DNA of 64,000 nt from Alphaproteobacteria bacterium (GTDB lineage Bacteria > Pseudomonadota > Alphaproteobacteria > Rs-D84 > SZUA-605): contig JAVBPW010000002.1 in the NCBI GenBank assembly GCA_031549385.1, forward strand, positions 34,271 to 98,270, given 5' to 3'. The notes below the pieces were generated by a model. That model worked only from the letters and a program-made list of their open reading frames with translations. It made no database searches and had not been told where the DNA came from. The translations under genes and the position numbers were made by a program. Positions within the stretch are counted from its first letter, which is position 1; every line of letters begins with the position of its first letter. This document shows, in pieces, positions 3,112 through 50,958 of the stretch.

Positions 3112-3243
3112 ACACCCCTCGTTATATGGATATTTATGTTTCTTTTGTATGATAACCTACTTTCCAAAAAAAAGAAAGAAAATATTTGCATAACGCATTT
3201 GTTTATGCTACAATTACTTATATTTAATAAAGGAGTTTTTGAA

Positions 3244-3582
3244 ATGAATAAAAGATTTTTGCCATTTTTCGCACTATTAGGAATATTTGGTTTATGTGCT
3301 GTGTTGCCAGCAGATGCTTTTGCACAAGCTGCAGTTTTGGCTAAACAAGCAGGTAATGTTTTTAAAAATATTAGAACATTAGTTTATATTGCAGCTGCTA
3401 TTGCTATTATATGGCAAGGTGCAGATATGATTATGAATGGTGGAACAGCTATTAATTGGGCGCCAATAAGAGGTATTGCTTATGGTCTTATTCTTGTTTA
3501 TGCAGCAAGCTGGATTGTACAAGGTTTAGTTGCTCTTACAGGTGGTGGCAATGAAGGCGGTATAATCGGAGCTAATTTCTAG
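3244..3582 (+). CDS. TrbC/VirB2-like pilin
   Basis: AGGAG RBS before ATG 3244; signal ending PADAFAQ, then two hydrophobic helices; divergent from virD4. Confidence 0.6.
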   Translation: MNKRFLPFFALLGIFGLCAVLPADAFAQAAVLAKQAGNVFKNIRTLVYIAAAIAIIWQGADMIMNGGTAINWAPIRGIAYGLILVYAASWIVQGLVALTGGGNEGGIIGANF

Positions 3583-3601
3583 AAATAGAATTTTAAAAAA
3601 T

Positions 3602-3631
3602 AAAATCCCCTGACAAAAAGGGGATTTTTTT
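3602..3631 (+). terminator. Rho-independent terminator
   Basis: AAAATCCCC...GGGGATTTT hairpin plus T-run. Confidence 0.75.
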
Positions 3632-3687
3632 GTTTGCATTTGCAAGTTTTTTTATTAACCTTATAACTTATAAAAAAGGAGACTTTT

Positions 3688-28461: not shown

Positions 28462-28488
28462 TATAAATTGTTTTCATAGGAGGGAGAC

Positions 28489-33900: not shown

Positions 33901-36900
33901 AATTTAGGAACTTTTGTTTTTAACTTTACTGATAATTATACAAAAGTTATTGTTAATACAACTAACTCTGGAACTTTTAATTCTACAGCAACAGCAAATT
34001 CTGCTGGTGGTGCTTTTTATGATTCTACAATTGGTACAATAGAATTTAATGCAGGAACTGTATTTGATGGTAATAATGTTAGAGCTGAAGCAAATTCAAT
34101 AAATACTGGAACTGGTGCTGCAACTGCAACTGCAACTGCATATGGTGGAGCTATTTATAATTCTGGAAATGGTATTATTAATATTTATAATTCTTCTTTG
34201 TTTATTGATAATAGTGTTACTTCAGTGGCAACTGCTGTTGGTTTGGGAACAGAGACAATAACTATGAATGCATATGGTGGGGCTATTTATAACACTGGAA
34301 CAAATTCGGAAATAAATATTATTGGGTTGGAAAAAATTGGTGTTGATGAAACTCATGTTGTTTTTAGAGGAAATAGTGCAACTGGTGGAGATACTACAAC
34401 TTTTGGTGGTGCTATTTATAATGCTGGAAAATTAAATGTGAGTTATGCGTTGTTTGAAAATAATACATCTTCAGGTTCTGGTGGTGCTATTTATTCAACA
34501 AATGTATTCAACTTAAATTATGCTGAATTTAAGGGAAATAGTTCAAATATAATGGGTGGTGCTGTTTATATTAATGCTACAACAGGTATTTTTAATCTTT
34601 TGACTTCAATTTTATTTGATAATAATTCATCTTTGGATGGAGGGGCTCTTTATACGAAGACAACCACAAATATTTCAAATACGGTTTTATTTAAAAACAA
34701 TTCTGCTACTCAATATGGTGGAGCATGGTATGTTAGTTCTGGGACTACAACAATTGATGGGGCTGTTTTTGATAATAATTCTGCTGAAAATGGTGGAGCT
34801 GTTTATAATAATGGAACAATGAATATTAATGGTGGAACAAGTTTTATAAATAATTCTTCAACAAGTTTTGGTGGAGCTATTTATACTATGCAAAACTTGA
34901 CTCTTAATTCTACTAATAGTGATATAACTTTTAATAATAACAAAGTTAATGGAATTGGAAATGATATTTATATTGGAGGAACAATTGCACGTGCTATAAT
35001 AATTAATGGTACAGCCAATAATGTTATAATGAATGGAGGGTTTGCAACAAATGGTGCTTCTTCTTCTGGAAATTATACAATTACAAAATCTGGATTGGGA
35101 AGTTTATTAATTACAGCTGATAATTTTGGATTTACAGGAACTTCAACAATATCTGCAGGTCAAGTTATTGTAAATGGAAAATGGATTAATGGTTTAACAA
35201 CTGTTTCAGGAACATCTGCTAATAATACATTGCTTAGAGTAACTAGTGATTCTGTTCATGAAAAAGTTACTATATCAAATACTGGAACTTTTGAACATCT
35301 ATCAACATCTTTAATTTCTTCTGAAATTAACAATGCTAATTTTAAATTTACAGTAGTTACAGGTGGAACAATGAAGTTTATGGCAGATTCTTCATTGGTT
35401 GGACAACTAGCCAAATATAACTTGTTAAATAATTTAGCAAATACTGCTAATGGTTATAATACTGTTTTATTTAAGGATTCTGACGTTACATTTGGAACTA
35501 ATTCTTATCAGAAAATTAGTAATGGCTGGATAAATTATACTTTTCAAAATTCTGTAATTAATTTAAGTAATATGTTGAGTGAAACAACAACATTTACTCA
35601 GGTAACATTAGATAATGCTACATTGTCTTTTGATGCAGGTTTTAAAGCTGATGGAACATTAGAATCTGATAAATTAGCCATTACAACTTTATTGGGAGAT
35701 AATACTATAAAATTAGGATCTGTTTATATAAAAGATGGTCAAAATGATACAGGATTAAATAAAACATATACATCACAGGTCCTTATGCCAGCTGGATTGA
35801 ATTTTGATTCTTCTTTGACTACTACTGTAAAATCAGATATATATGAATATCAAGCGGTTGTAAGTGGAAAAAATATAACACTTACTGTAATTGGAGCTGC
35901 AAATGAAAATTCATTGTATTCTGCAAATGCTAAATTAGGAACACGTGCTTTTAATATGACTTATTTTGGTACCTCACCTTATACATATAATATTGGTCAA
36001 AGCTTGAGTACAACAAATACAGGTACTTTTAATGTTGTAGGAAATTCTGCAGCTACAAGTATTATTTCAGGAATATTAGTGGATTCAACAGGCGTAGTTA
36101 TTGGAAGTAGTGGTTCTTTCTTTGATATTTCTGGTGCTGTTAATTTTACATTGAGTAATGTTAGTGTTGTTGATGCCTATAAAAATGGAAATGGATCTGT
36201 GTTGTTTGTAACAGGAACAGGAGCTACAATTAATTTAAGCAATTTAATACTTGCAAGAAATGAAGTAGATACATATGGTGGAGCTGTTTATAATGAAAAA
36301 ACAATTTCTTTTACTGGTTCAAATCAATTAAATGAAAATTCTGCTGGAAGTGGTGGTGCTATTTACAATCTTAATGGTGGTGTAATTAATTTAACATCAA
36401 CATCTTTTGATCAAAATATTGCTACTTTTAATGGTGGAGCTATTTATAATGCTGGAACAATTTCATTTAGTTCATCATCTCAATTTACTTCAAATACTGC
36501 GTTAAATGGTGGAGCTGTTTATAATACTGGAAATATAACAATCTTAGGGGGTAGTTCATTTACAAATAATACTGTAACAAATAATGGTGGAGCTGTTTGG
36601 AATTCTGGAACTGTGGTATTAAACTCATCTCTTGGAAATATACAATTTTCTGGTAATACAGCAACAGGTAATGGAAATGATATTTATAATGATGGTGGAA
36701 ATATAAATATTAATGGAACAGCAAATGATGTTATTATAGGTGGGGGAATTTCAGGGTATGGAAATATAAATAAATCAGGAAATGGAAGATTATTAATAAA
36801 TGCAAATAGTTCTGGATATATAGGTGTGTTTACTCAAACTGCTGGAACCACTATATTTTCAAGCAACATGTTTAATGGAACAAATAATATTACAGCTGGA

Positions 36901-39900
36901 GTATTGGAACTTGCAAATGGTGGTGTTTTTTCTGCAAATACTGTAGTTGCTTTATCAAATACTGGAATTTTTAACATTACAACAAATTCAAACATTACTT
37001 TAAATAGTGGGAATTTAATTGGGTATAATGGGACTTATGGAGTAGCTAATAAATCAGGAACTGGTGATTTAACTGTTTCTGGTGATAATTCTTTATTTCA
37101 AGGAACTTTTAATCAAACTTCAGGAAGAACTTTTGTTGATGAAACAAGTTTAATGTTTAATGGAATTAATAATATTTCAAACAGTTTGTTGCAGATTACA
37201 TCTTCAAATGTATATGAAAAAGTTAATATTGGTAATAATGGACAATTAATTCATATTTCAAAAACAGAAACAGTTTCAAATATTAATAATACAAATATTA
37301 AATTTACTGGTACTGGCGGAAATATATTTTTTAACTCTGATGCTTCTTTATTAAATGGCACAAATTATAATTTAGTAAATAAAATAGAGAATGGTAATTT
37401 AAATACTATTACTTTTAATGATTCAAATGTATTTCTTGGAAGTAATGATTATACTGGTTCAACTGTTTATAAATTTGATAATTCTGTCATAGATTTAAAT
37501 TCAGGAACAATAACAAATGTAGTTTTTTCAAATACAAATTTAAATAATACAAAACTGTCATTTGATGTAAAGTTTGATATGTCTGGTTCAAATCCTATTT
37601 TATTATCAGATACTTTTAATGCTGGAAGTTTGCTTGGTGACACAGATATAGGTATTGGTATAATCAGAATTTTAAATGATGATGAAGATACTGGATTGTC
37701 TGGAATATATACTTCTCAAGTGTTAACAAATACATCCTCTTTAGTATTTAGTGGTTTATCTGATACTATGTTTTTATCTACTAATGCTTATGAATATGAA
37801 GTAACTACAAATAATAAAAATGTTGTATTATCTGTAATTGGAGCATCAGATATGAATTCGTTATACAGAATGAATGATACTGTAAATAAACGTGGTTTTA
37901 ATATATCTTATTTTTCTGGTTCTACTGTTTACTATAATATAGGACAAAGTTTAGGTACAACTAAAAATGGAGAATTTATAGTTCAAGGTTTTGATAGTGA
38001 TCCAGATCATGGTGTTATTTCTGGTAAAATTGTTGATGTAAATAATGACCCAACTGGTGAATATGGTTCTTTCTTTAAATTAACAGGGTCAACAATATTT
38101 ACATTGAAAAATTTAACTATAGAGGAAGCTTATTCTTTAAATAATGGATCTGTATTGTATATGACAAATGCATCATCAACTGCTTTGTTGGAAAAAATAA
38201 TTATACAAGATAATGAAGTTGTTGAAAATGGTGGTGCTGTTTATGTTAGTGCTGGTTTATTAAGTATAAATAATGCTAGTTTTGATTCAAATATTTCTGG
38301 AATGAATGGTGGTGCTGTTTGGAATTCTTCAAACAATTCAACAATAAATACAACAAAATTTGAAGATAATGAAGCTGTTGGAAATGGTGGTGCTGTTTAT
38401 AATTCTGGAACTATTACTTTTGTTAATCTGATAGAATTTATTTCTAATAAGGCAGTTAATGGGTCAGCTCTTTATAATAGTGGTAGTGTAGATTTTCAAG
38501 GTGAGGTTGATTTATATTCTAATATTGCTAGTGGTAATGGAGCGATATACAATTCAGGAACAGCTGTTTTTAGAGGTATTACAACAATTAGTGGAAATGA
38601 AGCAGTTTCAGGTGGTGCTGTTTATTTGAATACTGGTACGGTTACTTTTAATGGAGTGTCAGATATAACTTCAAATGAAGCTACTACTGGAAATGGTGGA
38701 GCTGTTTATGTTGCTAGTGGTACAACATTGAATATAAATAATAACATGACTGCTTCTTCTAATACCGCAAATTCTGGTTTTGGTGGGGCTATATATTTAG
38801 CAGGTAGTTTGAATTTAGGTGGAGCATCGTCTACAACTATCTCATTTAGTGGAAATTCTGATAGTTCTGGTGATAATGATATTTATATGGTAAATTCTGC
38901 TTTATCAATAAATGGACTAGGAACATATAGTTTTAATAGTGGTATTTCAGGAGATACTGGTTCAAGCATTTCTCTAAGTGGTTCAGGAGCAAGATTCAAT
39001 GCTGAAATGACAGGATTTAATGGAAGTTATACACAAAGTGGTATTTCATCTATTGCTCAGATATATGGAACTTTGAATGCAAATTATACTATTACAAATG
39101 GAACAACTAAGTTTAAAGAGAATGCTTTGTCTTCTGGTAAAACTATAACAGTTAACGGAAATGGTATAGCTCAGTATGAAGGGTTAAATTCTAATAACCT
39201 TGGAACAGTTATAGGAACTGGAACATTGGTTGTTTTAAATACTCTTACAAATACAGGAACTCTTGATGTAGCTACATTACAAATAAATTCAGATCTTGTT
39301 AATAATGGAGTTATTGATTCTGATAATACAACAATAAATGCTGATGTTACTAATAATGCAACTATATCTGGAATAGGAACAACAACTGTAACTTCTGGTG
39401 CAAGTTTGTTAAATCTTGGTACAATTTCACAAAATAAATTAATTATTAATTCCTCTGGTGTTGTGGAAACAGATGCTGATGATATTATAATTGTTAATAA
39501 TATTTCTAATAATGGAACACTGATATTTAACTCTGGAGATAATTCCAATATAATTTCTGGTACTGGTATTGTTTCAATTACTGGAATTGTTGGAAATACT
39601 GCTTTGATTTCAACAAACAATTTAGAAATAGTTTCTGGCGCTGAGTTTAGTTCTGATATATCAAAATTAGCAATTATTAACCCAATAGAAAATGAAGGTG
39701 TTTTAAATTTATCCGGTAATGGCAGTTGGACAAAATCTGTTGTTGGAAATGATGGAATAATAACATTTGCTTCTGGAACAATTAATAATACTGCAGTTAT
39801 TCAACAAAAAGGTTTTATTGTTAAGAGTGATGGACAGTTATCTACTGATGGAAGTTTAATACAAACAAATACAGATGGTGTTTTAGTAAATGGTATTTTA

Positions 39901-41964
39901 AATGTTGTAAAAGGAAATTTGACTACTCAAGATTTAAATCTTTCTAAATCTTTAGCTTCAGATGTTCCTGTATTTGATTTACGCAGTTCATCTTCAGTTG
40001 ATGGAGCTTCAATTGTTTCAGTTAACTCAATTAATGCAGACGCCGGAAGTAAAATTTTTATGGACATCTTTTCAGATGGAACAAGTGACGTTATAAATGT
40101 ATCAGGAAATGCATTAATGAATGGTGAATTACATGTTAGAGCTGGAGTTGGTACATATAGAAATCTTACATTTACAATTATGAATGCTAATAATTTATCT
40201 GGAGATTTAATTGATGATATTACAAGTGGTAATATTCCTACATTGGCTTTTATTGATGCTTCAAACATTACAGATGCTAGATATGATTATAAATATGATG
40301 CAGATTCTAATACTATAACTTTATTTTTCAATGGTATTAATATGAGTAATTTTGCTAATATCTCTGGATTAACATTCAATCAAACTGAAGTAGCAAAAGC
40401 TATGGATAAGGTATCAGAAACTACAGTTGGTGATATGGCAACTATTATTAATGAGATGATAGATATCAATGATGAACAAGTTGTAAAAGATGTTTTAAGT
40501 GAATTATCACCTTATTTTTTAGCTAATATATTACGCCCAACTCCAAATATTGCAAACAGAGCTCATTTGTATGGAAGAATGAAGGATTATTGTGATAATT
40601 GCTATGGTGGTGGTTTGTGGATTGATGGTGGTATTAATAATACCAATTTAAAAGGAGATGAGAATTCTATTGGTAAATTAAATTCAGTAAAGACTGGTGT
40701 TACATTTGGTTATGATTATTATTTAGCTGAAAAAAGAATTTTGCTTGGTGTTTTTGGTAATGTTACTCCTGAAACAATTGATCAAGGAAATCACAGTGCA
40801 GATGTTCAAAATATGGGTGCGGGTGTTTATTTTGGATTGTTGAAAGAAGATTGGGATGCTAAATCAGTTGTTAGCTTTGGTCTTAATAATTATTCAACTT
40901 CTAGAAAAATTTATAATCAGGCTTTGAATTTAAATAGAATGGCTGTTGCTGATTTTGGAGGATATAATGCTGATTTTGATTTAGAGTTTGGATATAAATT
41001 TAAAGTAGCTAAAACATTTAAGCTTCGTCCATATGCAGGTGCTGAAATTCAAATGCTATCATATGATGGTTTTGAAGAAACTGGTGCAGATTCTTTAAAT
41101 ATGAATGTTTCTTCAGGGTCAAATCTTGGAACATCAGCTCGTATTGGAGTAGGGTTAGAACAAAAACTATCAAAAACATCTTGGTATGTTTCTGGAGAAT
41201 ATAATACAATATTGACAGGAAAATATATTGATCTTGAAACAAAATTTGCTAATACAGATGTTAGGTTCTCATCTCGTGGTGCTGATATTGGAACTGGGGT
41301 TATGGCGTTTAATGCAGGAATTGATTATGATATAGATAAAAGATTTAATGTTTATGCTAGTGCTAATTATCAAATGGGTGGTGGATTTGATGTATATGGT
41401 ATTAAAGCTGGATTTAGGTTTAAGTTTTGCTCTGATAAAAGAGTATCTGCAACTCAGAAGTCTGCTTCAAACCAAAGAGATTCTAATCAAGACTTGTATT
41501 CAAACCAGGATATATATTTAGATAAAGAGGTATCTTTAAATCAAAGAACAGCATTAGAAGTATCTTCAGCTCAAAATGTACCAGAAACACCTACAGAATA
41601 TCGACGTGTTGGTGAAACTTATTATGAATTTGATAAATATACTTTAAATAAATCAACAAAGGAAAAAATTAAGATTATTGCTAATAATTATAAAGATACT
41701 GCTACAAAATTTGTTATAAAAGGACATACAGATTCTATAGGAACAGAAAAATATAATTTATCTTTATCTGAAAAACGTGCTAATGCAGTTGCTGAGTATA
41801 TGATAGAATCTGGAGTAAATTCTAAAAAAATAGAATATTTAGGGTTGGGGAGCTATGACCCTGAATATAGTAATTCTTCATATTATGGCCGTGCTAAAAA
41901 TCGTCGTGTTGATATAATGATGTTTAATAAAATGAAAAAAACAAAGTTAAAATTATATTTTTAA
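30967..41964 (+). CDS. Giant autotransporter adhesin: POMP-type (GGAI/FxxN) repeats, autotransporter beta-barrel, then a C-terminal OmpA-like domain
   Basis: Signal peptide; dozens of FxxN...GGA(I/V)Y repeats; KSGxGxL passenger strands; barrel from GLWIDGG to AGFRFKF; then YEFDKY...GHTDSIG..YNLSLSEKRA...NRRV. Confidence 0.9.
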   Translation: MYCCNLKFLGILSFMLCGLCANLYAADWHVPTNSLEAAITSASNNDNIIIDSNIISNLTLTPTPYVIDKVLNYSSNIPGLYSVGMYVSTVANSNRHFSFTSGASGSTFTNLALNNTQNVAVANSISKGGAIYTEGADLSFTGVTFGGNQGNRASAAGGAIYSLGGNLIINDASGFTSSTAQSTTSTGGAVYIEDATLVTNDTVIFNTNKAAFGGGIYSKNSSLTLSNTTSFTSNQATGGVNYGGAIYLDGGTLVLSGSNFASNTATGGAGGAIYNNLGVLTVGASVFNLNTSLNGAAIYNTGTLNSVGLATFTTNTASGSGGAVYNTGSNLVFTGTIFTGNKSTGANLGGGAIYNSGWDLTINDGTSFTSNTASSSGGKGGAVYSENGNVTIGAAVFTLNTASQGAALYVLNGNINIAGTVSFMSNTASAAGGAIFIQGVDVSANISGIDSNNAALFQNNISSGSFDANRKIGAGAIFFDGINAVTDISFDGTFNPNDCLLCINYATFDSNKASSGLAGAIYINNTVATISNSVFSNNSTISSNSMGGAIYNGPGAKTYIENTSFLNNFTTAASAYGGAIANSGYMKMVNVTISGNSSKTWGGAVLNSGNFVLGEAEFYPEMTIVDSYFYQNSSTSGGGGLCIGDNAIKTDVINTKFVENVGLHGGALYNETVATIIGSEFKDNMTLVGGQGGGAIWSGADWAIGEKLDISVDDTEFTGNKSNTAGGAVYLNISSSTTVDLDYPNWEYPSVNTFKVTNSTFTNNQTIVSGHGGAIYGSVTKGGDLIQDRKLILDVDNVVFDSNSAGGSGGAVYVTATYVDTANSKIGSTEVTIENSDFENNTAGVSGGAIYNSVTAAGTIANMTLMDVDFDNNSAGTSGGGLYLSGQSATTMLNVVLSNVSFTGNQVKRVATTGTSYALTGGAINNNQYVNLEFQNNHNFDSNGIDGSLTNIGTGAANFALTMNSYGGALYTASNSVINLGTFVFNFTDNYTKVIVNTTNSGTFNSTATANSAGGAFYDSTIGTIEFNAGTVFDGNNVRAEANSINTGTGAATATATAYGGAIYNSGNGIINIYNSSLFIDNSVTSVATAVGLGTETITMNAYGGAIYNTGTNSEINIIGLEKIGVDETHVVFRGNSATGGDTTTFGGAIYNAGKLNVSYALFENNTSSGSGGAIYSTNVFNLNYAEFKGNSSNIMGGAVYINATTGIFNLLTSILFDNNSSLDGGALYTKTTTNISNTVLFKNNSATQYGGAWYVSSGTTTIDGAVFDNNSAENGGAVYNNGTMNINGGTSFINNSSTSFGGAIYTMQNLTLNSTNSDITFNNNKVNGIGNDIYIGGTIARAIIINGTANNVIMNGGFATNGASSSGNYTITKSGLGSLLITADNFGFTGTSTISAGQVIVNGKWINGLTTVSGTSANNTLLRVTSDSVHEKVTISNTGTFEHLSTSLISSEINNANFKFTVVTGGTMKFMADSSLVGQLAKYNLLNNLANTANGYNTVLFKDSDVTFGTNSYQKISNGWINYTFQNSVINLSNMLSETTTFTQVTLDNATLSFDAGFKADGTLESDKLAITTLLGDNTIKLGSVYIKDGQNDTGLNKTYTSQVLMPAGLNFDSSLTTTVKSDIYEYQAVVSGKNITLTVIGAANENSLYSANAKLGTRAFNMTYFGTSPYTYNIGQSLSTTNTGTFNVVGNSAATSIISGILVDSTGVVIGSSGSFFDISGAVNFTLSNVSVVDAYKNGNGSVLFVTGTGATINLSNLILARNEVDTYGGAVYNEKTISFTGSNQLNENSAGSGGAIYNLNGGVINLTSTSFDQNIATFNGGAIYNAGTISFSSSSQFTSNTALNGGAVYNTGNITILGGSSFTNNTVTNNGGAVWNSGTVVLNSSLGNIQFSGNTATGNGNDIYNDGGNININGTANDVIIGGGISGYGNINKSGNGRLLINANSSGYIGVFTQTAGTTIFSSNMFNGTNNITAGVLELANGGVFSANTVVALSNTGIFNITTNSNITLNSGNLIGYNGTYGVANKSGTGDLTVSGDNSLFQGTFNQTSGRTFVDETSLMFNGINNISNSLLQITSSNVYEKVNIGNNGQLIHISKTETVSNINNTNIKFTGTGGNIFFNSDASLLNGTNYNLVNKIENGNLNTITFNDSNVFLGSNDYTGSTVYKFDNSVIDLNSGTITNVVFSNTNLNNTKLSFDVKFDMSGSNPILLSDTFNAGSLLGDTDIGIGIIRILNDDEDTGLSGIYTSQVLTNTSSLVFSGLSDTMFLSTNAYEYEVTTNNKNVVLSVIGASDMNSLYRMNDTVNKRGFNISYFSGSTVYYNIGQSLGTTKNGEFIVQGFDSDPDHGVISGKIVDVNNDPTGEYGSFFKLTGSTIFTLKNLTIEEAYSLNNGSVLYMTNASSTALLEKIIIQDNEVVENGGAVYVSAGLLSINNASFDSNISGMNGGAVWNSSNNSTINTTKFEDNEAVGNGGAVYNSGTITFVNLIEFISNKAVNGSALYNSGSVDFQGEVDLYSNIASGNGAIYNSGTAVFRGITTISGNEAVSGGAVYLNTGTVTFNGVSDITSNEATTGNGGAVYVASGTTLNINNNMTASSNTANSGFGGAIYLAGSLNLGGASSTTISFSGNSDSSGDNDIYMVNSALSINGLGTYSFNSGISGDTGSSISLSGSGARFNAEMTGFNGSYTQSGISSIAQIYGTLNANYTITNGTTKFKENALSSGKTITVNGNGIAQYEGLNSNNLGTVIGTGTLVVLNTLTNTGTLDVATLQINSDLVNNGVIDSDNTTINADVTNNATISGIGTTTVTSGASLLNLGTISQNKLIINSSGVVETDADDIIIVNNISNNGTLIFNSGDNSNIISGTGIVSITGIVGNTALISTNNLEIVSGAEFSSDISKLAIINPIENEGVLNLSGNGSWTKSVVGNDGIITFASGTINNTAVIQQKGFIVKSDGQLSTDGSLIQTNTDGVLVNGILNVVKGNLTTQDLNLSKSLASDVPVFDLRSSSSVDGASIVSVNSINADAGSKIFMDIFSDGTSDVINVSGNALMNGELHVRAGVGTYRNLTFTIMNANNLSGDLIDDITSGNIPTLAFIDASNITDARYDYKYDADSNTITLFFNGINMSNFANISGLTFNQTEVAKAMDKVSETTVGDMATIINEMIDINDEQVVKDVLSELSPYFLANILRPTPNIANRAHLYGRMKDYCDNCYGGGLWIDGGINNTNLKGDENSIGKLNSVKTGVTFGYDYYLAEKRILLGVFGNVTPETIDQGNHSADVQNMGAGVYFGLLKEDWDAKSVVSFGLNNYSTSRKIYNQALNLNRMAVADFGGYNADFDLEFGYKFKVAKTFKLRPYAGAEIQMLSYDGFEETGADSLNMNVSSGSNLGTSARIGVGLEQKLSKTSWYVSGEYNTILTGKYIDLETKFANTDVRFSSRGADIGTGVMAFNAGIDYDIDKRFNVYASANYQMGGGFDVYGIKAGFRFKFCSDKRVSATQKSASNQRDSNQDLYSNQDIYLDKEVSLNQRTALEVSSAQNVPETPTEYRRVGETYYEFDKYTLNKSTKEKIKIIANNYKDTATKFVIKGHTDSIGTEKYNLSLSEKRANAVAEYMIESGVNSKKIEYLGLGSYDPEYSNSSYYGRAKNRRVDIMMFNKMKKTKLKLYF

Positions 41965-43624: not shown

Positions 43625-44311
43625 ATGAATAAAAAAAATATATTAACCGTTTTAATGTTTATAACAATTTTGTTTTGTAGTATAATTTTGTATTTTACTC
43701 AAAACTCAACGAAAAAAACAAGCAATGATTTATATAATGCGGCTGAAATAGGGGATGTTGAAAATACAAAATTTTTAATAAAAGATAATTATGATGTGAA
43801 TTATTCATGTGAAAATAATTGTAAAGGCTGGACGCCACTAATGATTGCATCTGCTAATGGTCATAAAGAAATTGTTAGTATTTTGTTGGAAAATGGAGCT
43901 GATCCTAATATTCAAAATGAATTAGGAAGAACTGCTCTTCAATATGCTGTGCGCTATGAATTTATAGAAATAATTCAAATGTTATTGGATTATAAAGCAG
44001 ACCCAAATTTAAAGGATTATACTCCTGATAATAATGAAAATGTTAATTCTCCAATGGCTGATGCATTGACGCATAAACAAAATACTAAAATCTTAAAAAT
44101 GCTAATTTTATCTGGAGGTAATCCAAATTATTCTTATTGGGATTTTACTCCTCTTATTGTTGCAGCAAGCTTTAATGATGTTTTATTAGTTAAACTTCTT
44201 CTTGAAAAAGGAGCAAATCCTTTTGTATCAAAATCAGGAATAAGTGTTGAAAATATTTCTAATAATGAAGAAATTAAAAGTTTAATTAAAAAAGCTCAAA
44301 CAAATAAATAG
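43625..44311 (+). CDS. Membrane-anchored ankyrin repeat protein
   Basis: N-terminal TM helix; GWTPLMIAS..GH..IV..LL..GADPN, GRTALQYA, TPLIVAA repeats. Confidence 0.9.
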   Translation: MNKKNILTVLMFITILFCSIILYFTQNSTKKTSNDLYNAAEIGDVENTKFLIKDNYDVNYSCENNCKGWTPLMIASANGHKEIVSILLENGADPNIQNELGRTALQYAVRYEFIEIIQMLLDYKADPNLKDYTPDNNENVNSPMADALTHKQNTKILKMLILSGGNPNYSYWDFTPLIVAASFNDVLLVKLLLEKGANPFVSKSGISVENISNNEEIKSLIKKAQTNK

Positions 44312-44477
44312 TCACCCCTCTGTTTTTGGGCATTGTATGTAAATGAGCTGAAAATCGTAAAATTTGGATTTTAAAAAGGCTTACAGGGCGACTGTATGAG
44401 CCGGAAACCCTGCAGAAGTCCGGCGGATCTGGGCAATAAAAAAGCCTTGCATACACAAGGACAATTTAGTGGTCGGG
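44309..44477. repeat. Junction repeat J1 (folded module + type A arm + TGGTCGGG core)
   Basis: Closely similar to 52193-52360; core at 44470. Confidence 0.9.
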
Positions 44478-44540
44478 AAATAAATAAAACCAGTGCAAGC
44501 CATACAGGACATGGATTTGCTAGATATATATTATCAAATA

Positions 44541-44560
44541 ACAGGGAATTTACAGGGAAA
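44541..44560. repeat. Tandem ACAGGGAA direct repeat near the element end; probable protein-binding site
   Basis: ACAGGGAATTTACAGGGAAA; weaker copy ACAGGAAATT at 44638. Confidence 0.45.
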
Positions 44561-44707
44561 ATTGATGTTTTTTGAAGGCAGTAAACTCAAAATTTCCATA
44601 TTTTCCGCCAATTCTAGCATTTTTAGTCAAAAAATTAACAGGAAATTTTAAATTAGTTATCAGGTAATAATCTTGCAAAAACAGTTAAAATTTGTAATAA
44701 TGTCAAT

Positions 44708-45175
44708 ATGTATGAAAAATTGAAAAAATATAAAAAAATCTATATTATTGGGGCATGTGGTAGTGGAAAAACAACATTTGCTCAAAAGTTGGCTAAATAT
44801 TTAGATTATCCTAATTTTACACTAGATAATGTGTACAGATATAAAGAAACTCGTGCAATTTGTTCAGAAAAAGAACGTACAAAAATATTAAACAGCATAT
44901 TAAATCAAGAAACATGGATTATAGAAGGTGCACAATGCCATGATTGGATAGAGAGCATCTGGAAAAATTGCGATATTGTAATCTTATGCAATCCATCAGC
45001 ATTAACAAGAATCTTTTACATTTCAAAAAGATATATTTTGAATTTGATAAGGGGGAAACATACAGATTTCCTGGTAGATATTTTTGCTACTATTAAATTT
45101 AAGAGAAACTCTTTGCCTAAATTTCAAGAATATGTTAAGAAACATAGAAAGGAAATTATTAAATTATTTAAATAA
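44708..45175 (+). CDS. P-loop kinase (adenylate kinase-like / FlaR topology modulation family)
   Basis: KIYIIGACGSGKTT, LDNVY, WIIEG. Confidence 0.8.
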   Translation: MYEKLKKYKKIYIIGACGSGKTTFAQKLAKYLDYPNFTLDNVYRYKETRAICSEKERTKILNSILNQETWIIEGAQCHDWIESIWKNCDIVILCNPSALTRIFYISKRYILNLIRGKHTDFLVDIFATIKFKRNSLPKFQEYVKKHRKEIIKLFK

Positions 45176-45267
45176 CCAGGACTTTTATGGTTATTTTTTA
45201 AAATATGCTGCATTTTATTCATAACAGCCAAATTACTTTATATAAAAAGAGATTTTGAAATTTTAAA

Positions 45268-45297
45268 AAATAGAGAGATTTTACAACCTCTCTATTT
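45268..45297 (-). terminator. Terminator downstream of the peptide ORF
   Basis: AAATAGAGAG...CTCTCTATTT hairpin with A-run to its left. Confidence 0.7.
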
Positions 45298-45299
45298 GG

Positions 45300-45395
45300 T
45301 TAACATTTCATCCATTGAGAAACTTCTCCACGCCAAGTAGGATTTAGTTTTGTTTCAATCCTTTTTAACGCAAGAAGTAATAGTTTTTTTTCCAT
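45300..45395 (-). CDS. 31-aa peptide MEKKLLLLALKRIETKLNPTWRGEVSQWMKC; candidate RiPP precursor
   Basis: Not in the ORF track. AAGGAG RBS 6 nt before ATG; directly downstream of rSAM/SPASM gene; followed by a terminator. Confidence 0.7.
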   Translation of the reverse strand: MEKKLLLLALKRIETKLNPTWRGEVSQWMKC

Positions 45396-45440
45396 AATTA
45401 TCTCCTTTTATTTATGTTAACATATACACAATAAATATTT

Positions 45441-46497
45441 TTATAGAACAAGTTTTTTTATTTCTTTGTAAAGTTTTTTTCTTTGTTCACAATAAACAAA
45501 TATTCCATCGTGCGCCATTAGATTGTCTTTAACTCTCGTTGCAGGACAACCATTTCCACAAAACCTGTAAAATTCACATTTATGACATTTTTCAGGCATT
45601 TGTAAAAATACTTTTTTAAAATTTTTATATGCAATAGTTTTTTGTAAATTTTGTAAATCAGTATCTAATATATTTCCATAACTAGCTAGTGATCTTAAAT
45701 ACTCACAAGGATAAAGCTGCCCTTCAGGGTCAATAGAAACCCAATTTAAACAAGATTTATCACTGCTACAAAGATTTATAGTTTTATCTGATAACCATGC
45801 AATAACTTCATCTAATTCTCTAATCATAATTTCAGGATCATTTGATTTTAACCATAAATGTAATATATCTTTAAGATATAAAAACCACTCATCTGCATTT
45901 ATGCTAAAATTATCTTCAAAAGAATCAAAAACGGGACTAAATTTAATTTCTTTAAATCCATTATTTATAACAAATTCGAAAACTTCTTTTGGATATTTAA
46001 TAAATTCCTTTGTTACTGTTATTATAACAGGGGGATTTATTCCATTATCTCTTAGAATGTTAAACTCCTCTCATTACATTTTCAAAAGAACCTATTCCGT
46101 CTTTATAAATGCGATTTGTATTATGAATTTTTTGTGATCCGTCTAAACTAATACTAACTTTAAAATCATTTTCTTTAAAGAATTTTGCAAAATCGTCTGT
46201 TATTAGTGTAGCGTTAGTTTGAATTAAGTTTTGTATTTTATGTTCTTCAGTTTTATACTTATTAAGTATTTTAACAAATGTTTTATAGAATTCAATACCG
46301 GGGATTAAAGGTTCTCCGCCATGCCAAGAAAAGAAAATATTTTTTTGATATTGAAAGAATTTTTTTACTGTTGCCTCTAGTATATTTTCTGGCATTATTT
46401 GTATTTTTTCCTTAGAGAAAGGGGCTGCATAGCAATATTTGCATTTTAAATTACAGTTGCTTCCAACTGGTTTTACTTGTATTCCAAAATTTTTCAT
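45441..46497 (-). pseudogene. Radical SAM/SPASM maturase split by a 1-nt frameshift at ~46062
   Basis: N-half CNLKCKYC, WHGGEP, QTNAT. Deleting one base from GTT TAA C gives ...GVNILRDNGINPP... open without stops into the SPASM half (YPC, CHKCEFYRFCGNGC). Could be a sequencing error. Confidence 0.85.
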
Positions 46498-48125
46498 CAC
46501 ATTTTATTCTCCTTTTTTAGTTCCATATCCATATATTTCTTAATAATTTCTTTATCATAAAATCTTATTTTACAGCTTGGAAGCATTAACATTCTGCTTA
46601 TTTGTAAATCTTCTAAAAATGGTAAGTCGTGACTTACAATAACAAGTGTTCCTCCATAATTAGTTAAAGCTTTTGCCATTATTTTTTTTGTTGGAATATC
46701 TAAATGATTTGTAGGTTCATCGAGAAGAAGTAGATTATTTTGAGCAATACATAGTCTTGCAATTTCAAGTCTGCTTCTTTCACCAGGGGATAGTGTTTTA
46801 ACTTCTTGAAAAACTTTATCACCTTTGAAGTTAAAAGAACCTAGTATTGTTCTTATTTGGCTATCGTTATAGTTTACACTTGATACTGCGTCCAAAATAC
46901 TCAATTTTTCATCTATATTTGAATGTTCTTGTTCATAATATCCTATTTTTGTTTTATTTCCAACTTTTATGCTACCTTTATCTGACTTTAATAGGCCTGC
47001 CATTAACTTTAGCATAGTTGATTTTCCAGCGCCATTTGCCCCAATAATAATAAATCGTTCATTTGGTTCAATTTCAAATTCAGCATTTTTTATAACAGGT
47101 TTATCTTGAGTATAACCGAAATTTACACTATGAACTTCAATAGGATTTTGAGTTTCTTGTTTTTCTACCTTTAAATCTATTTTAATTTCTTTTTGTTTTT
47201 TAGGTGGTTCAAGCATATTTTCTTTCATTTTATCAAGTAATTTTTCTTTACTTTGTGCCTGACGCTTCATTTTTCCAGACTTGCCTTTTTGTGTATCTAT
47301 AAATTTTTGCAAATGTTCTATTTTTAAACTTTGATTTTTTAATTGTTTTTCTAAATGTAAATTATTTTCTTCAACTTGTGATAGAAACTTCTGGTAACTA
47401 CAATTATAAATATTTGTAGATTTAGTTTGATTATCAATGTATAAAATTTTATTTGCTAATTTATTTAAAAAATCTTCGTCATGAGAGACAAATAGAACAG
47501 AAATTTTTAAATTTTTAAGGTAATCAATAACCCAATCTTTCGTTTCTTTATCTAAATGATTTGTTGGTTCGTCTAATATCAAAAATGAAGGTGCGGAATA
47601 TAATGTTCTTAAAAATGAAAGTTTAGATTTTTGCCCACCTGATAATTCTATCATTTTTTTATTTAAAATATTTTTAGGAATTTTGAAATTAGCAATGAGC
47701 TTTTCTAAATCAATATCTGCTGTATATCCACCATAATACTCAAATTGATTTTGACTTTTTTCTAATTCTTCAATTAAATAATCTGAAGAGTCTTTGCTTA
47801 ATTTTAAATATAAATCATTGATTTTTGTAGCAAGTTCTTTAACAGGTCTTCCTGAATACAAAAAATCATAAACAGATATATCATCAGGGATTTCAAGTTC
47901 ATCAATTGTTTGTGGCATCCAACCAATATGTTGGTTTGATGGAATAAATTCAATATCACCGTCATTGTAATGTAGGTTGTTTGCTATAATTTTGATTAAA
48001 GTAGATTTTCCTGCTCCATTTAAACCAGTAACTGCAATTTTATCTCCATCGCTAACACTAAAATTTACATCTTTAAAAATAAGATGATCAGCATAAGACT
48101 TTGAAAGATTTTTTACAATAAGCAA
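46497..48125 (-). CDS. ABC-F family ATPase
   Basis: Two ABC domains (GLNGAGKST/LSGGQ/LDEPTNHLD; GANGAGKST/LSPGE/LDEPTNHLD) joined by a linker; no TM segments. Confidence 0.93.
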   Translation of the reverse strand: MLIVKNLSKSYADHLIFKDVNFSVSDGDKIAVTGLNGAGKSTLIKIIANNLHYNDGDIEFIPSNQHIGWMPQTIDELEIPDDISVYDFLYSGRPVKELATKINDLYLKLSKDSSDYLIEELEKSQNQFEYYGGYTADIDLEKLIANFKIPKNILNKKMIELSGGQKSKLSFLRTLYSAPSFLILDEPTNHLDKETKDWVIDYLKNLKISVLFVSHDEDFLNKLANKILYIDNQTKSTNIYNCSYQKFLSQVEENNLHLEKQLKNQSLKIEHLQKFIDTQKGKSGKMKRQAQSKEKLLDKMKENMLEPPKKQKEIKIDLKVEKQETQNPIEVHSVNFGYTQDKPVIKNAEFEIEPNERFIIIGANGAGKSTMLKLMAGLLKSDKGSIKVGNKTKIGYYEQEHSNIDEKLSILDAVSSVNYNDSQIRTILGSFNFKGDKVFQEVKTLSPGERSRLEIARLCIAQNNLLLLDEPTNHLDIPTKKIMAKALTNYGGTLVIVSHDLPFLEDLQISRMLMLPSCKIRFYDKEIIKKYMDMELKKENKM

Positions 48126-48189
48126 TAAACACCTCTCTGGTTATATATAGTTTATACATTTTTTGTTAATATTCAAGTATAAATAGAAG

Positions 48190-48789
48190 TTATTTATTAT
48201 TTTCTACAAACCAAGTTGCAAATATATTTAAACTTCCTTCTGATTTTCCACCAGAATAGTATTGATTAACTTCGTCTTCTGTCATTTCTGCCATTCTTTT
48301 TTGAAATCTTTCAATCCAAACAATCTTCCATAAAACAGACCAAGCCAAAGGTGAATCTACTTTACTAATTTCATTAGCAATTGATACTTCACCACCTTTT
48401 CTGTGGAATTGATGTTCCTGACCATTAACATCAATATATGTTGCAGTACTTACAAATTTAGCATTTCTATTTTCAACGCCATTCATCAATTTTATAATTC
48501 CTTCTGCCCCCAAAGTTTGATTTATATATTTAGTATAAACTCCAGGAAATCCTTTTAATGCTTCAATTGCAAAACCGCCATCTTCTACTAAAACAGGTTC
48601 TTTTAATTGTTCAAAGGCCTGTCTTGCTTTGAATAGTGATACTTCAGAAAAGTTATCAGCTTGAGGTTCAATCAAATTCAAATTCAAATTAGTAGGAACA
48701 ATTTCAATATCAGAACGACCCAAACTTACAAAAAAGTTTTGTAATGTTTTTGCTTTTCCTGCATTTGAAGTAATTAAGTGTATTTTCAT
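48190..48789 (-). CDS. Non-canonical purine NTP pyrophosphatase (Ham1/ITPase family)
   Basis: LITSNAGK, KARQAF, VEDGG..I.ALKGFPGVYTK; the C-terminal SHR motif is not conserved. Confidence 0.8.
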   Translation of the reverse strand: MKIHLITSNAGKAKTLQNFFVSLGRSDIEIVPTNLNLNLIEPQADNFSEVSLFKARQAFEQLKEPVLVEDGGFAIEALKGFPGVYTKYINQTLGAEGIIKLMNGVENRNAKFVSTATYIDVNGQEHQFHRKGGEVSIANEISKVDSPLAWSVLWKIVWIERFQKRMAEMTEDEVNQYYSGGKSEGSLNIFATWFVENNK

Positions 48790-49097
48790 TAATCTATCCT
48801 TTTGATTTGAACCGCAATTAGTCCATATTTATTTTGTTCTTTTTCAGAAAACCATTTATTTAAATGTCTTCTTAAATTTTCTTTATCCATATTTATTTTT
48901 GCAGCTTTAATATAGCTTGTAATTTTATTACTACTATTAATATTGTTTTTATTTAATAAATTATTTTTTAATAGATTATTTGTTGAATTTGATCTGCCAC
49001 CATGAGTTGAACAGCTTCGTTGGTAAGCAGATATCTTTTTACCATTTCTAGTATGGGAACTAACTGAAATAGTTCCACTACATTTATTTTTAGACAT
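48789..49097 (-). CDS. Small hypothetical protein (possibly a fragment)
   Basis: Stop overlaps the ITPase start (TAATG); first gene after the repeated promoter. Confidence 0.45.
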   Translation of the reverse strand: MSKNKCSGTISVSSHTRNGKKISAYQRSCSTHGGRSNSTNNLLKNNLLNKNNINSSNKITSYIKAAKINMDKENLRRHLNKWFSEKEQNKYGLIAVQIKRID

Positions 49098-49110
49098 AAT
49101 GTTTCTTTTG

Positions 49111-49235
49111 TTTAAAATTAGTTAATAAAAAAGACCACGGAAACCGTGGTCAAATTAGATATAAAAAATGGACGCAATTCGCCCATATAACTAAAAAATA
49201 TTATACAATATTTTTATTAAAAAGTCAAGGAAATT
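49111..49235 (-). promoter_or_regulatory. Repeated promoter + structured leader/terminator, copy 1
   Basis: Minus-strand TTGACT (49228-49223)-N17-TATAAT (49205-49200), then hairpins TGGGCGAATTGCGTCCA and GACCACGG-TTT-CCGTGGTC-TTTTTT; homologous to 62063-62187. Confidence 0.8.
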
Positions 49236-49350
49236 TTATAGACAAACCGCAATCAGCATTTATGTTGTTGCACTTCTCTGTCATCTCAGAAATTTGTGAA
49301 ACGCAGTTTTGAGCAAATATTCGAGGGATCTAATTCGCTGAAACCTAAAG

Positions 49351-49521
49351 TAGTGACACCGCCAAATTCGCCATTGTATGTAAGTTGAGCAATTTTAGCT
49401 AAAAAGCCATACCAAAAAGGCTTACAGTATCAATATTTGAAAAAATATCGGCTGTGAGTGGCTGTGTGTGCGGAGTGGTTGAAATAATAAAAATCTCGAT
49501 ATTCAAGAATTTAAATGGTAG
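49351..49521. repeat. Junction repeat J2 (folded module + type B arm + TGGTAG core)
   Basis: Closely similar to 62208-62380; core at 49516. Confidence 0.9.
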
Positions 49522-49658
49522 TTCGCTCAAGATTCGAATTTGCAACATCAAAGGTATCTTTGCCTTTACCAGCCTTGATTTGCGAGACTTTAGGCGATTT
49601 GTGGCTAGGTTATGAAATTTACCTCAATCTTGCCAAAGACCACAAAAACATCGCCTAG
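49516..49658. repeat. Right-arm repeat P', copy 1 (tRNA-3'-end mimic + hairpins)
   Basis: Homologous to 60838-60979; first 34 nt match the tRNA-Pro 3' end at 22/34 positions without gaps. Confidence 0.85.
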
Positions 49659-49860
49659 GAATTGAAATTTACGTATCATAAAAAATCTCTGTTTTGTATC
49701 AAAAAATGATTTGATTTAGTTATTATTGAAATACGTATAAAAATTCTTTCTTGTATTTAAATATAAGATAATAGATTTGTTTGTATTATAATGTTGATTA
49801 ATTGCTTTATTTGTATTATAATACATATAAATAATATTAAAAAATAATAAAGGGATTTAT

Positions 49861-50958
49861 ATGGGTAGCTTTGTATTAAAAAGATTTCCTAAGATTTTAG
49901 ATGATTTTCCTAAAAATCAAGATACTTTTGCTGCAGAAAATAAGCTATCCAGATATGACGGTATGGTGGAATTTGTATATTCTCCGGAAATATTAACCTC
50001 TATATTATTCTATCAAGAATCTGTTATGTCATCAAGGCTGGAAGGAACAGTTGCTACAATAACTGATATTTTAAATTACAAAGTTGGTAAAGACCTTTCT
50101 GAAAGAATAGAGGCAGATGCAACAGAGATAGAAAATTATAAAGATGCTTTGGGATATTGTATAAAAGAAGTAGAAGACAATAATTTTGTTATAACTGCTT
50201 CCCTTATTAAAAATATACAAGCTATTTTATTAAATCAATCAAGAGGGAAGGATAAATTAAAGGGAAAATTTAAGGAAAAACAAAACTATATAGGAAATAA
50301 ATTTGATGGAAAAATAACATATACTCCTGTTTCCCATTTACATACAGAAGAATATATGAATGAATTAATAAATTTTATAAATTCAAATACAAATATGAAT
50401 CCTATAGTAAAGATTGCTTTCATACATGCTTATTTTGAATTAATACATCCTTTTGAAGATGGAAATGGACGTGTTGGGAGAATATTAATTCCAATATTGT
50501 TAAAAAAGTATGGAGTTTTATCTACACCTTATTTTTATATAAGTTATTATCTGTCAAAACATAGAAATAATTATATTAATTCTCTTGAGGCAATTTCTAA
50601 GAATAATGATTGGGAAAAGTGGATAAACTTTTTTATAGAAGTAATAGAAAAGCAAACAGATATGCTTATAAAAATGCTTAGAAGATTAAAAGAAATTAGG
50701 AAAGAAACAGAAGATAAATTATCTTTATTAAAATCTCAATTTAATATTCAAGTCTTAAATTTCTTATTTAGAAGGATTAAATTTACTACAACAACATTTA
50801 TAAAAGAAACTGGACTAAATGGTAATACCGCTAGAGCTTTGTTAAAGTCTATGGAAGAAAATGGAATATTGGAAACTGAAGAAAGAGGTTTGGGACAAGC
50901 TCCGTCAATTTATAGATTTGTTGATTTATATAAAATGGTTGAGGAAATTTCAGAATAA
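49861..50958 (+). CDS. Fic family protein with C-terminal winged-helix domain
   Basis: SSRLEG inhibitory helix; canonical HPFEDGNGRVGR; palindrome TGTATTATAATACA (49812-49825) upstream may be an operator. Confidence 0.92.
   Translation: MGSFVLKRFPKILDDFPKNQDTFAAENKLSRYDGMVEFVYSPEILTSILFYQESVMSSRLEGTVATITDILNYKVGKDLSERIEADATEIENYKDALGYCIKEVEDNNFVITASLIKNIQAILLNQSRGKDKLKGKFKEKQNYIGNKFDGKITYTPVSHLHTEEYMNELINFINSNTNMNPIVKIAFIHAYFELIHPFEDGNGRVGRILIPILLKKYGVLSTPYFYISYYLSKHRNNYINSLEAISKNNDWEKWINFFIEVIEKQTDMLIKMLRRLKEIRKETEDKLSLLKSQFNIQVLNFLFRRIKFTTTTFIKETGLNGNTARALLKSMEENGILETEERGLGQAPSIYRFVDLYKMVEEISE

Follow-up and report, generated by a model that had tools for sequence, protein, structure and literature searches.

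A W-x-K-C peptide, a radical SAM/SPASM enzyme and a PoxtA-like ABC-F protein make up a candidate modified-peptide cassette in small-genome bacteria

Radical S-adenosylmethionine (SAM) enzymes with a SPASM domain act on peptides and proteins in several described systems, and the peptides they modify have proved a productive source both of antibiotics, darobactin among them, and of new cross-link chemistry. In the mycofactocin and PQQ systems (MftA/MftC and PqqA/PqqE), the site at which a SPASM enzyme acts is the C-terminal residues of a small peptide, and the pathway does not require an exporter. Anaerobic sulfatase-maturating enzymes (anSMEs) recognise a Cys/Ser-x-Pro/Ala-x-Arg motif, and the known daropeptides target BamA of Gram-negative bacteria and come with ABC exporters, not with an ABC-F protein. 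Producer-type ABC-Fs encoded in antibiotic gene clusters serve self-protection. Resistance-type ABC-Fs are known beside small-molecule antibiotic pathways, but we found no report that ties one to a ribosomal peptide pathway; to our knowledge no peptide natural-product cluster holds a conserved ABC-F, and our literature search for a radical SAM-ABC-F pairing, or for ABC-Fs in peptide natural-product clusters, returned no report. Here we analyse a locus on the minus strand of a 64,000-nt stretch of contig JAVBPW010000002.1 (hereafter the window, meaning the whole stretch), which belongs to a 931-kb alphaproteobacterial genome with 30.5% G+C and the standard code. The locus holds genes for an ABC-F ATPase, a radical SAM/SPASM enzyme and a 31-residue peptide ending in W-M-K-C. 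With a probability of roughly 60%, we take the three genes to represent a conserved cassette that yields a peptide made on the ribosome and modified by an enzyme, with an ABC-F partner that would protect ribosomes.

The peptide carries much of this argument. The enzyme belongs to a clade for which 14 other loci were collected: five from a genome collection (L006-L010, hosted by an SR1 bacterium, a 1.4-Mb Clostridia metagenome-assembled genome, an unclassified 0.7-Mb bacterium, a Saccharimonas and another Patescibacterium), six from metagenomes (L094-L098 and L100) and three from the window's own order (L113-L115); L099 lies on the same contig as L010 and hence was not counted. A short open reading frame (ORF) ending in W-x-K-C is present in 12 of the 14, the remaining two being contigs of 3.4 and 1.5 kb, as against none of 75 control loci with more distant radical SAM enzymes (L011-L085). 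An earlier sequence-only reading of the window had expected, before any homologue was inspected, that related enzyme loci would hold a conserved short ORF, and this expectation was borne out. The pairing spans at least five lineages and four gene orders: the peptide gene lies directly 3' of the enzyme gene in the window, L008, L009, L010 (where there are two copies), L095, L097, L098 and L113-L115, before the enzyme gene in L100, after the ABC-F gene in L007, and 1.4 kb upstream, beyond a major facilitator superfamily (MFS) gene, in L006. GGAGG or AGGAG stands 5-10 nt ahead of the peptide start in every peptide locus save that of SR1 (L006); among the other loci tallied for this motif the count is nine of nine, L006 excepted. 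Cassette-free ABC-F loci of relatives (L089-L093) contain no W-x-K-C peptide, and across the whole 931-kb genome, read in six frames, 21 frames end in W-x-[KR]-C-stop, of which only the window's peptide resembles the family. The W-x-K-C peptide gene is real.

Searching 1.84 billion representative sequences with a profile built from 11 peptides gave 47 matches at E <= 0.001, of which 43 are short (28-53 residues) and the others comprise a chance match to a 1245-residue repeat protein, two sequences that have lost the stop codon and one fusion with the enzyme. All 43 short peptides end in W-x-K-C, the commonest form being N-W-R-G-x-L-S-N-W-I-K-C. Counted from the C-terminus, conservation among them is W(-11) 42, R(-10) 40, G(-9) 38, W(-4) 43, K(-2) 43 and C(-1) 43, and residue -3 of the peptides is I, T, M, V or R. 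The core consensus occupies the 12 residues up to the carboxyl terminus, [N/D]-W-R-G-x-L-[S/T]-[N/S]-W-[I/T/M/V]-K-C, and the N-terminal half is a loosely conserved helix of the form KK-x-F/L-L-x-x-V/I-L. The W-R-G and W-M-K-C stretches that had been singled out from the window alone are the very positions that the 43 database peptides conserve. W-[I/T/M/V/R]-K, an instance of the aromatic-X-X motif of triceptides, occurs in 43 of 43 database peptides and 12 of 12 locus peptides. The whole has the make-up of a precursor-maturase pair, namely a short adjoining ORF, conservation across taxa, and a core that is kept while the leader varies. The W-x-K-C peptides match nothing in Pfam or NCBIfam, and the source records call them only 'hypothetical protein'.

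The enzyme's clade is separate from the anSMEs, and the window's own copy does not have an uninterrupted reading frame. After 146 codons its frame meets a TAA at 46060-46062, then resumes one base on for 209 codons up to a stop at 45441-45443, a single +1 break within 46060-46066. Bridging the break by reference to homologues in one four-letter step (TAAC read as N) gives 352 residues that align over 98-100% of their length, at 42-61% identity, to about 110 database clusters of intact 340-400-residue proteins, the identity being 50-61% for intact ones of 350 residues. Since an alignment of 40 sequences is ungapped at the break and the read-through retains all 42 invariant columns, 11 of them Cys, the gene is one extra base away from a working form and otherwise undecayed. 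The CxxxCxxC cluster motif and the SPASM cysteines are present (PF04055, 57.3 bits; PF13186, 29.1 bits; TIGR04085, 49.2 bits). The best curated family is the anSME model TIGR03942, to which intact homologues score 272.5, 263.0 and 267.4 bits against a cut-off of 349.45 and the window's two pieces 149.1 and 110.2 bits. DynA (NF041298) comes second at 213-219 against 450 bits, and DarE (NF038005) reaches 132-138 against 650. Other models also stay far under their cut-offs, these being GrrM/OscB (163-172 against 310 bits) and the further three-residue cyclophane-forming enzymes AmcB (137-158/425), YhhB (126-143/445), FxsB (85-118/370) and XyeB (84-97/450); a PapB-type ranthipeptide maturase model gives about 150 bits, likewise far under its cut-off. 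The closest solved structure is the anSME of Clostridium perfringens (4K36-4K39), at 266 bits with the family profile.

Much about the enzyme recalls AtsB and anSMEcpe, the anSMEs of TIGR03942: a length of about 350 residues with no N-terminal peptide-recognition domain, a CxxxCxxC radical SAM cluster, a SPASM domain with two auxiliary clusters, and an acidic residue after the cysteine of Y-P-C. However, the clade's enzymes fall under the anSME cut-off, separate from anSMEs in the tree, have no sulfatase neighbour and are partnered by a 28-53-residue peptide lacking the sulfatase motif. In a quick maximum-likelihood tree of 56 rows, the clade is monophyletic (17 rows, 98 by the Shimodaira-Hasegawa-like approximate likelihood ratio test, SH-aLRT) and apart from a 25-row anSME clade (99) that includes the window's own maturase at 27313; the window's two radical SAM enzymes are 24% identical. 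The sequence-only reading had set that maturase against the sulfatase-free island described here, and rightly so: the stretch 27313-30846 encodes a bona fide anSME (TIGR03942, 448.6 bits) and then a 785-residue protein with weak arylsulfatase similarity (70.8 bits). Among the seven loci of the enzyme clade that have long flanks, no sulfatase was found near the enzyme, except that a protein with a domain like those of formylglycine-generating enzymes and sulfatases (FGE-sulfatase) lies 2.8 kb away in L008.

The third gene encodes an ABC-F protein, with two stretches matching PF00005 (169.9 bits), a PF12848 (ABC_tran_Xtn) match of 53.2 bits and no membrane domain. It passes the model for ribosomal protection-like ABC-Fs, NF000355, at 403.4 bits against a cut-off of 380, as do all five cassette ABC-Fs scanned (L007 413, L009 386, L095 398 and L100 410, besides the window's). 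It is far under the cut-offs of all the named resistance families (OptrA, Msr, Vga, Lsa, Sal, CplR and the producer type), for example 293 against 725 bits for Sal, 265 against 800 for the producer type and 253 against 1450 for OptrA; the NCBIfam output has no row specific to PoxtA. Among solved structures, PoxtA (7P7Q) is its best relative at 388 bits, followed by Uup at 228, and PoxtA heads the list for four of four cassette ABC-Fs (L007 469, L009 260 and L095 280 bits being the others). Like the antibiotic resistance ABC-Fs, whether PoxtA and OptrA or the producer-type TlrC, CarA, OleB and SrmB, the protein has about 540 residues, two ABC domains and a short linker, the difference being its distance from the specific resistance-family cut-offs.

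An ABC-F gene adjoins the enzyme in 11 of the 14 other clade loci; the 2-kb contigs of L097 and L098 are too short to show whether one is there. A two-domain ABC-F match is absent from all 75 non-clade loci. The association of ABC-F and enzyme had been suspected from the window alone, and it extends to the family. Its arrangement varies, the ABC-F gene being upstream and co-directional, downstream and convergent, or separated from the enzyme by a methyltransferase or S66 peptidase gene, which argues for selection on proximity and not for one frozen inherited operon. In the window's order, all four enzyme-bearing genomes have the order ABC-F, enzyme, peptide. In a quick ABC-F tree, the cassette copies of two genomes of genus g6 (G934 and G887) group with those of the window and of G1111 and apart from the ABC-Fs of four cassette-free g6 genomes, so that within this order the three genes move together. 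Judged from these gene neighbourhoods, we regard the ABC-F as a part of the cassette and not as a chance neighbour. Two further observations concern the cassette ABC-Fs. In L010 (1424-2281) and L095 (4811-5725) the immediate neighbour of the cassette ABC-F is a gene for an S66 LD-carboxypeptidase; the microcin C immunity protein MccF belongs to the S66 peptidase family. In L010 the cassette ABC-F itself falls into two separate ORFs, one of 309 and one of 223 residues (2361-3976).

How might the three products work together? The 31-residue product would consist of an N-terminal helical leader and a 12-residue C-terminal core. The enzyme, a descendant of the anSME/DynA branch that lacks a separate leader-recognition domain, would bind the peptide and abstract a hydrogen within the terminal W-x-K-C. 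W-x-K is a form of the aromatic-X-X motif at which triceptide synthases make ring-to-C-beta links. HtkB, according to PMC11499958, links His to the C-beta of Lys on H-T-K, and PMC9055067 describes darobactin as joining Trp and Lys of W-x-K through a C-C link and as having a further link that involves Trp. Short ORFs downstream of enzymes in a sister clade, from Patescibacteria, encode aromatic-x-Lys/Asn triplets (P-W-D-K, W-A-N), and their peptides end in repeats such as P-W-D-K-A-W-D-K-G-P-W-D-K-G-H-W-A-N-R-K; the enzymes of another sister clade precede peptides whose tails are acidic and rich in aromatic residues. From the W-x-K form, the Trp-Lys link of darobactin and the W-D-K/W-A-N peptides of the sister clade, we tentatively favour a Trp-to-Lys C-C bridge of the three-residue cyclophane type, perhaps with a second link to the upstream Trp or the terminal Cys. 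Sister clades, themselves uncurated, give a lead on this chemistry that falls short of proof. Their loci are of some interest in themselves: after the sister enzymes of L012, L015 and L018 (at about 5105-5265) and L017 (3912-4079) lie genes for 46-55-residue peptides with the conserved leader P-K-V-L-L-Q-A-K-K-E-A, and curated families exist for neither the enzyme nor the peptide of this clade. Elsewhere, anSME-like radical SAM enzymes are found beside peptides with acidic, Tyr/Trp/Phe-rich C-termini (L011 5125-5298, L019 2566-2721, L027 5097-5255, L031 1072-1290 and L047 3799-3927), which by their sequences apparently form another uncurated precursor family.

Compared with the triceptide synthases (XyeB, YhhB, GrrM/OscB, FxsB, AmcB and HtkB), which are likewise radical SAM/SPASM enzymes acting on short precursors with aromatic-X-X motifs, the present clade differs in having one triplet at the extreme C-terminus that is always followed by Cys, an invariant W-R-G seven residues upstream and an ABC-F as its conserved partner; its cross-link is a prediction, and no curated model is reached. 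A core with two Trp and one Lys could give a bicycle similar to those made by DarE and DynA on daropeptides, but the core sequence is different and the enzyme is under the cut-offs of both. Unlike the mycofactocin and PQQ systems, the cassette has no chaperone of the PqqD/MftB type and no conserved trimming peptidase or redox partner, and it is sparsely distributed.

These comparisons leave room for other accounts of what the pair makes, and several features weigh against the one we prefer. Gly in third position makes the upstream W-R-G a misfit for a Trp-to-C-beta triplet, the nearest characterised relative of the enzyme acts on Cys, and the invariant Cys is not explained by a Trp-Lys bridge alone. 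The same pair might therefore carry out Cys-centred chemistry, be it a thioether that joins the Cys sulfur to a carbon upstream, as in sacti- or ranthipeptides, oxidation of the Cys C-beta to an aldehyde or a C-terminal decarboxylation. Cys(-1) is invariant and always last in 43 of 43 peptides, anSME is the best match of the enzyme by family and by structure with the PapB-type maturase also scoring, and the acidic residue aligned with Asp277 of anSME, next to an auxiliary-cluster Cys, is kept as an invariant Glu in Y-P-C-E-Y. Such chemistry would leave two invariant Trp and an invariant Lys without a role, however, and the anSME substrate motif is absent from the peptides; DynA, a maker of aromatic cross-links, scores nearly as high as anSME, and the sister-clade peptides have no Cys and are rich in aromatic-x-Lys/Asn/Asp triplets. 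We consider Cys-centred chemistry possible, though somewhat less so than the Trp-Lys bridge. A conserved core at the extreme C-terminus would also suit a precursor from which an intracellular small molecule or cofactor is cut in the manner of mycofactocin or PQQ, with no secreted antibiotic involved. A leader protease or exporter is not conserved across the cassette loci, which also counts against the account we prefer: of the seven long-flank loci, L006 and L007 have an MFS transporter and L008 alone an ABC exporter. The carriers' tiny genomes (0.6-1.4 Mb) and the S66 carboxypeptidase adjoining the cassette in two of those seven loci (L010 and L095) fit a cofactor as well. Yet a cofactor gives no reason for the link with an ABC-F, and accessory redox or trimming enzymes are not conserved. 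The very sparse distribution of the enzyme, in 4 of 328 genomes of the window's order (three besides the window's) and 2 of 401 Patescibacteria (both already among the known loci), is typical of accessory conflict genes and not of cofactors, and we consider this account unlikely.

The part played by the ABC-F is the other matter on which the cassette has to be judged. According to PMC8987054, PoxtA binds the ribosomal E site and, in spite of a short linker, pulls the P-site tRNA's CCA end from the peptidyl-transferase centre, relieving stalling by phenicols and oxazolidinones. By analogy, the PoxtA-like ABC-F of the cassette might sit in the E site and protect the producer's ribosomes from the mature peptide, a proposal we hold tentatively; if it does, the product is a translation inhibitor. 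Here, too, there are observations on the other side. L008 has no ABC-F within 4 kb, and the ABC-F of the cassette-free G018 falls inside the clade of the window's. Across phyla the ABC-Fs are 28-46% identical, as against 39-60% for the radical SAM enzymes, as if each lineage used its own, and the identities of the two co-vary only weakly (Spearman 0.24, p 0.38, for six loci giving 15 non-independent pairs). The ABC-Fs of cassette-free relatives are nearer still to PoxtA (G009, 634 bits), so that resembling PoxtA does not mark out the ABC-Fs of the cassette. Moreover, the cassette ABC-F is the sole ABC-F in four small genomes, the window's own (G000, at E<=1e-10), G440, G443 and G444, and could therefore equally be a general translation factor, beside which the peptide would lie for co-expression, or as a hard-to-translate peptide whose translation or release needs the ABC-F, or as a regulator of the ABC-F. 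We consider such an arrangement possible but somewhat less so than protection. In genus g6, genomes with and without the cassette have ABC-Fs of different clades, a sign of co-transfer; only 21 of 40 relatives in the order possess an ABC-F, a patchy occurrence by which it is not essential there; and the peptide gene mostly lies downstream of the ABC-F gene, not before it, which does not suit an attenuator leader. With ribosome protection as the preferred role, a bolder scenario can be entertained, although we would not call it probable: the W-x-K-C peptides may be a new class of RiPPs (peptides made by the ribosome and modified after translation) that act at or near the peptidyl-transferase centre, with the PoxtA-like ABC-F as dedicated immunity, the cassette moving whole between symbionts of reduced genome (Rickettsiales-like Alphaproteobacteria, SR1, Saccharibacteria and small Clostridia) and repeated loss of the enzyme, with the ABC-F kept as in the window, giving rise to immune non-producers.

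The distribution is patchy. Hosts of the clade are Alphaproteobacteria of the window's order, SR1, Saccharibacteria, other Patescibacteria and Clostridia, but the enzyme is absent from the window's 40 nearest relatives, and in a sample of 401 genomes of the phylum only the window's own carries it, the other 400 being without. Viral contigs hold no close clade member (one locus at 27%), and neither do plasmids (six records, all anSMEs at about 30%). The cassettes of G934 (L116) and G887 (L117) have variable surroundings: upstream, one genome has a cytosine-methyltransferase-like ORF and the second a membrane protein, and downstream both have the same short opposite-strand ORF.

Damage to the enzyme recurs in this family. 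In the window the enzyme gene is frame-broken while the ABC-F and peptide ORFs are intact; in G934 the start codon of the radical SAM gene is ACG in place of the ATG of G887 (L116 3128-3130), the loci being otherwise 99% identical over 161 bases; the clusters of the two closest homologues hold frameshifted variants (P0250, P0257, P0255, P0269 and P0271), some on contigs of 0.6-0.9 Mb; and P0312 (241 residues) joins the N-terminal 207 residues of a clade enzyme to a complete W-x-K-C peptide, as though the two genes had been fused by a deletion. Enzyme loss with retention of the ABC-F is what is expected of immune non-producers, although relaxed selection, or in part sequencing errors, may account for it as well. 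The sequence-only reading spoke of a frame-repaired enzyme; the single +1 break that it implied is there, but it understated the damage, as nothing may be made from the local copy, a last point to be held against a working cassette in this organism. The local enzyme is probably inactive, and the organism probably makes no product while retaining the protective gene; the alternative is an error of assembly or sequencing, with a local cassette that works in full. In favour of such an error, the break is single, it falls in a short T/A run, and 352 codons show no other stop, gap or lost invariant residue. Breaks at other sites in independent records of the enzyme make real decay plausible, however, as does the reduced genome. 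The assembled contigs of one possibly matching DNA run yielded only 20-37-base fragments of unrelated contigs, none spanning 46060-46066. We hold an error to be the less probable explanation. One could go further and see in the gene a second sulfatase-maturase paralogue that has decayed and is followed by a chance ORF, anSME being its best family match and a true anSME lying 18 kb away in the same genome, or else a gene with programmed +1 frameshifting, a Shine-Dalgarno-like GGAG standing just before G-TTT-AAC with an in-frame stop, which we take to be a superficial likeness to the prfB site. Both are contradicted by the data: the clade stands apart from anSMEs in the tree and is only distantly related to the window's own, the peptide is conserved across phyla, and homologues are uninterrupted at this site while other copies break elsewhere, which leaves no conserved recoding site. 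We consider either very improbable.

Table 1. Elements of the cassette. Coordinates are positions in the whole 64,000-nt window; the cassette is read on the minus strand from 48125 to 45262.
Feature	Position	Strand	Details
ABC-F ATPase	46497..48125	-	542 aa, TTG start, intact; two ABC domains and inter-domain linker
TTG start of ABC-F gene		-	preceded by GAGAGGTG; read from the sequence
Radical SAM/SPASM gene, anSME-like, separate clade	45441..46497	-	one +1 frame change; ATG 46497-46495
Frame-break site	46060..46066	-	in-frame TAA 46060-46062 within GGAGTTTAAC; homologues G-V-x-x-L-R, ungapped
Precursor peptide gene (candidate)	45300..45395	-	31 aa, MEKKLLLLALKRIETKLNPTWRGEVSQWMKC; helix-like N-terminal leader; C-terminal core W-R-G-x4-W-M-K-C
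Shine-Dalgarno AAGGAG	45402..45407	-	6 nt ahead of peptide ATG
Intrinsic terminator ending the operon	45262..45297	-	13-bp stem, 4-nt loop, U run; -15.1 kcal/mol, z -4.92

The four elements stand back to back and leave no space for further genes (Table 1). The layout read from the sequence at the outset proved accurate in its particulars: the ABC-F stop overlaps the enzyme start in TGATG, the TGA at 46499-46497 sharing one base with the ATG; the peptide ORF, whose quoted sequence matches, begins exactly 45 nt past the enzyme stop; and the strong ribosome-binding site and separate terminator ascribed to the peptide gene are present as AAGGAG and a 13-bp hairpin with a U run. The hairpin (45297-45268) begins three bases past the peptide stop, and none of 200 shuffled sequences folds as stably; a consensus terminator scan did not pick up this hairpin, which folding detects. 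A GTG at 46500 is also offered by the ORF listing as the enzyme start, the ATG reading giving MKNFG... as the N-terminus. A scan for sigma-70 promoters found 35 sites against 35.3 expected and supports no promoter call, and an Rfam search in and around the locus gave only two matches to small RNAs at chance level, the peptide region corresponding to no known RNA. Flanking the cassette within 44708-50958 are a plus-strand gene for a P-loop NTPase (44708-45175), one for a Ham1-type NTP pyrophosphatase, a 102-residue ORF without a family and a gene for a Fic protein; no sulfatase, protease, exporter or other transporter is encoded between 44708 and 50958, as had been noted for protease and exporter. 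The minus strand has a tandem pair of terminator-like hairpins at 49133-49186, directly upstream of the 102-residue ORF, and two stretches of 400-700 nt (one at 44312-44700) with neither ORF nor Rfam match may hold unrecognised RNAs. Elsewhere the window encodes giant ORFs of 1894 (18577-24261) and 3665 residues (30967-41964), an ankyrin-repeat protein (43625-44311) and, at 49861-50958, the Fic protein, a repertoire typical of intracellular or host-associated bacteria.

The interpretation first drawn from the window is thus supported by the family as a whole, with the modification of the peptide, the type of cross-link and the role of the ABC-F as its predicted elements, and peptide binding, target and immunity proposed on the strength of homology and gene neighbourhood. 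We found no description of the enzyme clade or of the peptide motif in a literature search whose scope left subscription journals and the supplementary precursor lists of triceptide surveys outside it. This apparently is an uncharacterised family within a known kind, the radical SAM/SPASM-modified peptides, and could correspond to an unstudied cluster in the supplements of such surveys. Two of its traits are unusual, namely that the W-x-K-C core is strictly C-terminal and that the conserved partner is a PoxtA-like ABC-F. For the window alone the practical point is smaller, since the enzyme is broken, and we suggest that the genome be annotated as carrying a cassette remnant, with a pseudogene, an intact precursor ORF and an intact ABC-F. 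The family offers more, in that its core of 12 residues is short and highly conserved, its enzyme is compact and does without a separate recognition domain, and some natural pairs are intact and ready for direct expression. Its carriers are tiny-genome, probably host- or cell-associated bacteria, in which accessory conflict systems have been little studied. If the proposed target and immunity are true, the peptides would be a natural ligand for the branch of ABC-Fs that includes the clinical resistance factor PoxtA, and if the peptide acts on the ribosome, the cassette would be relevant to the question of why nature has such protection factors.

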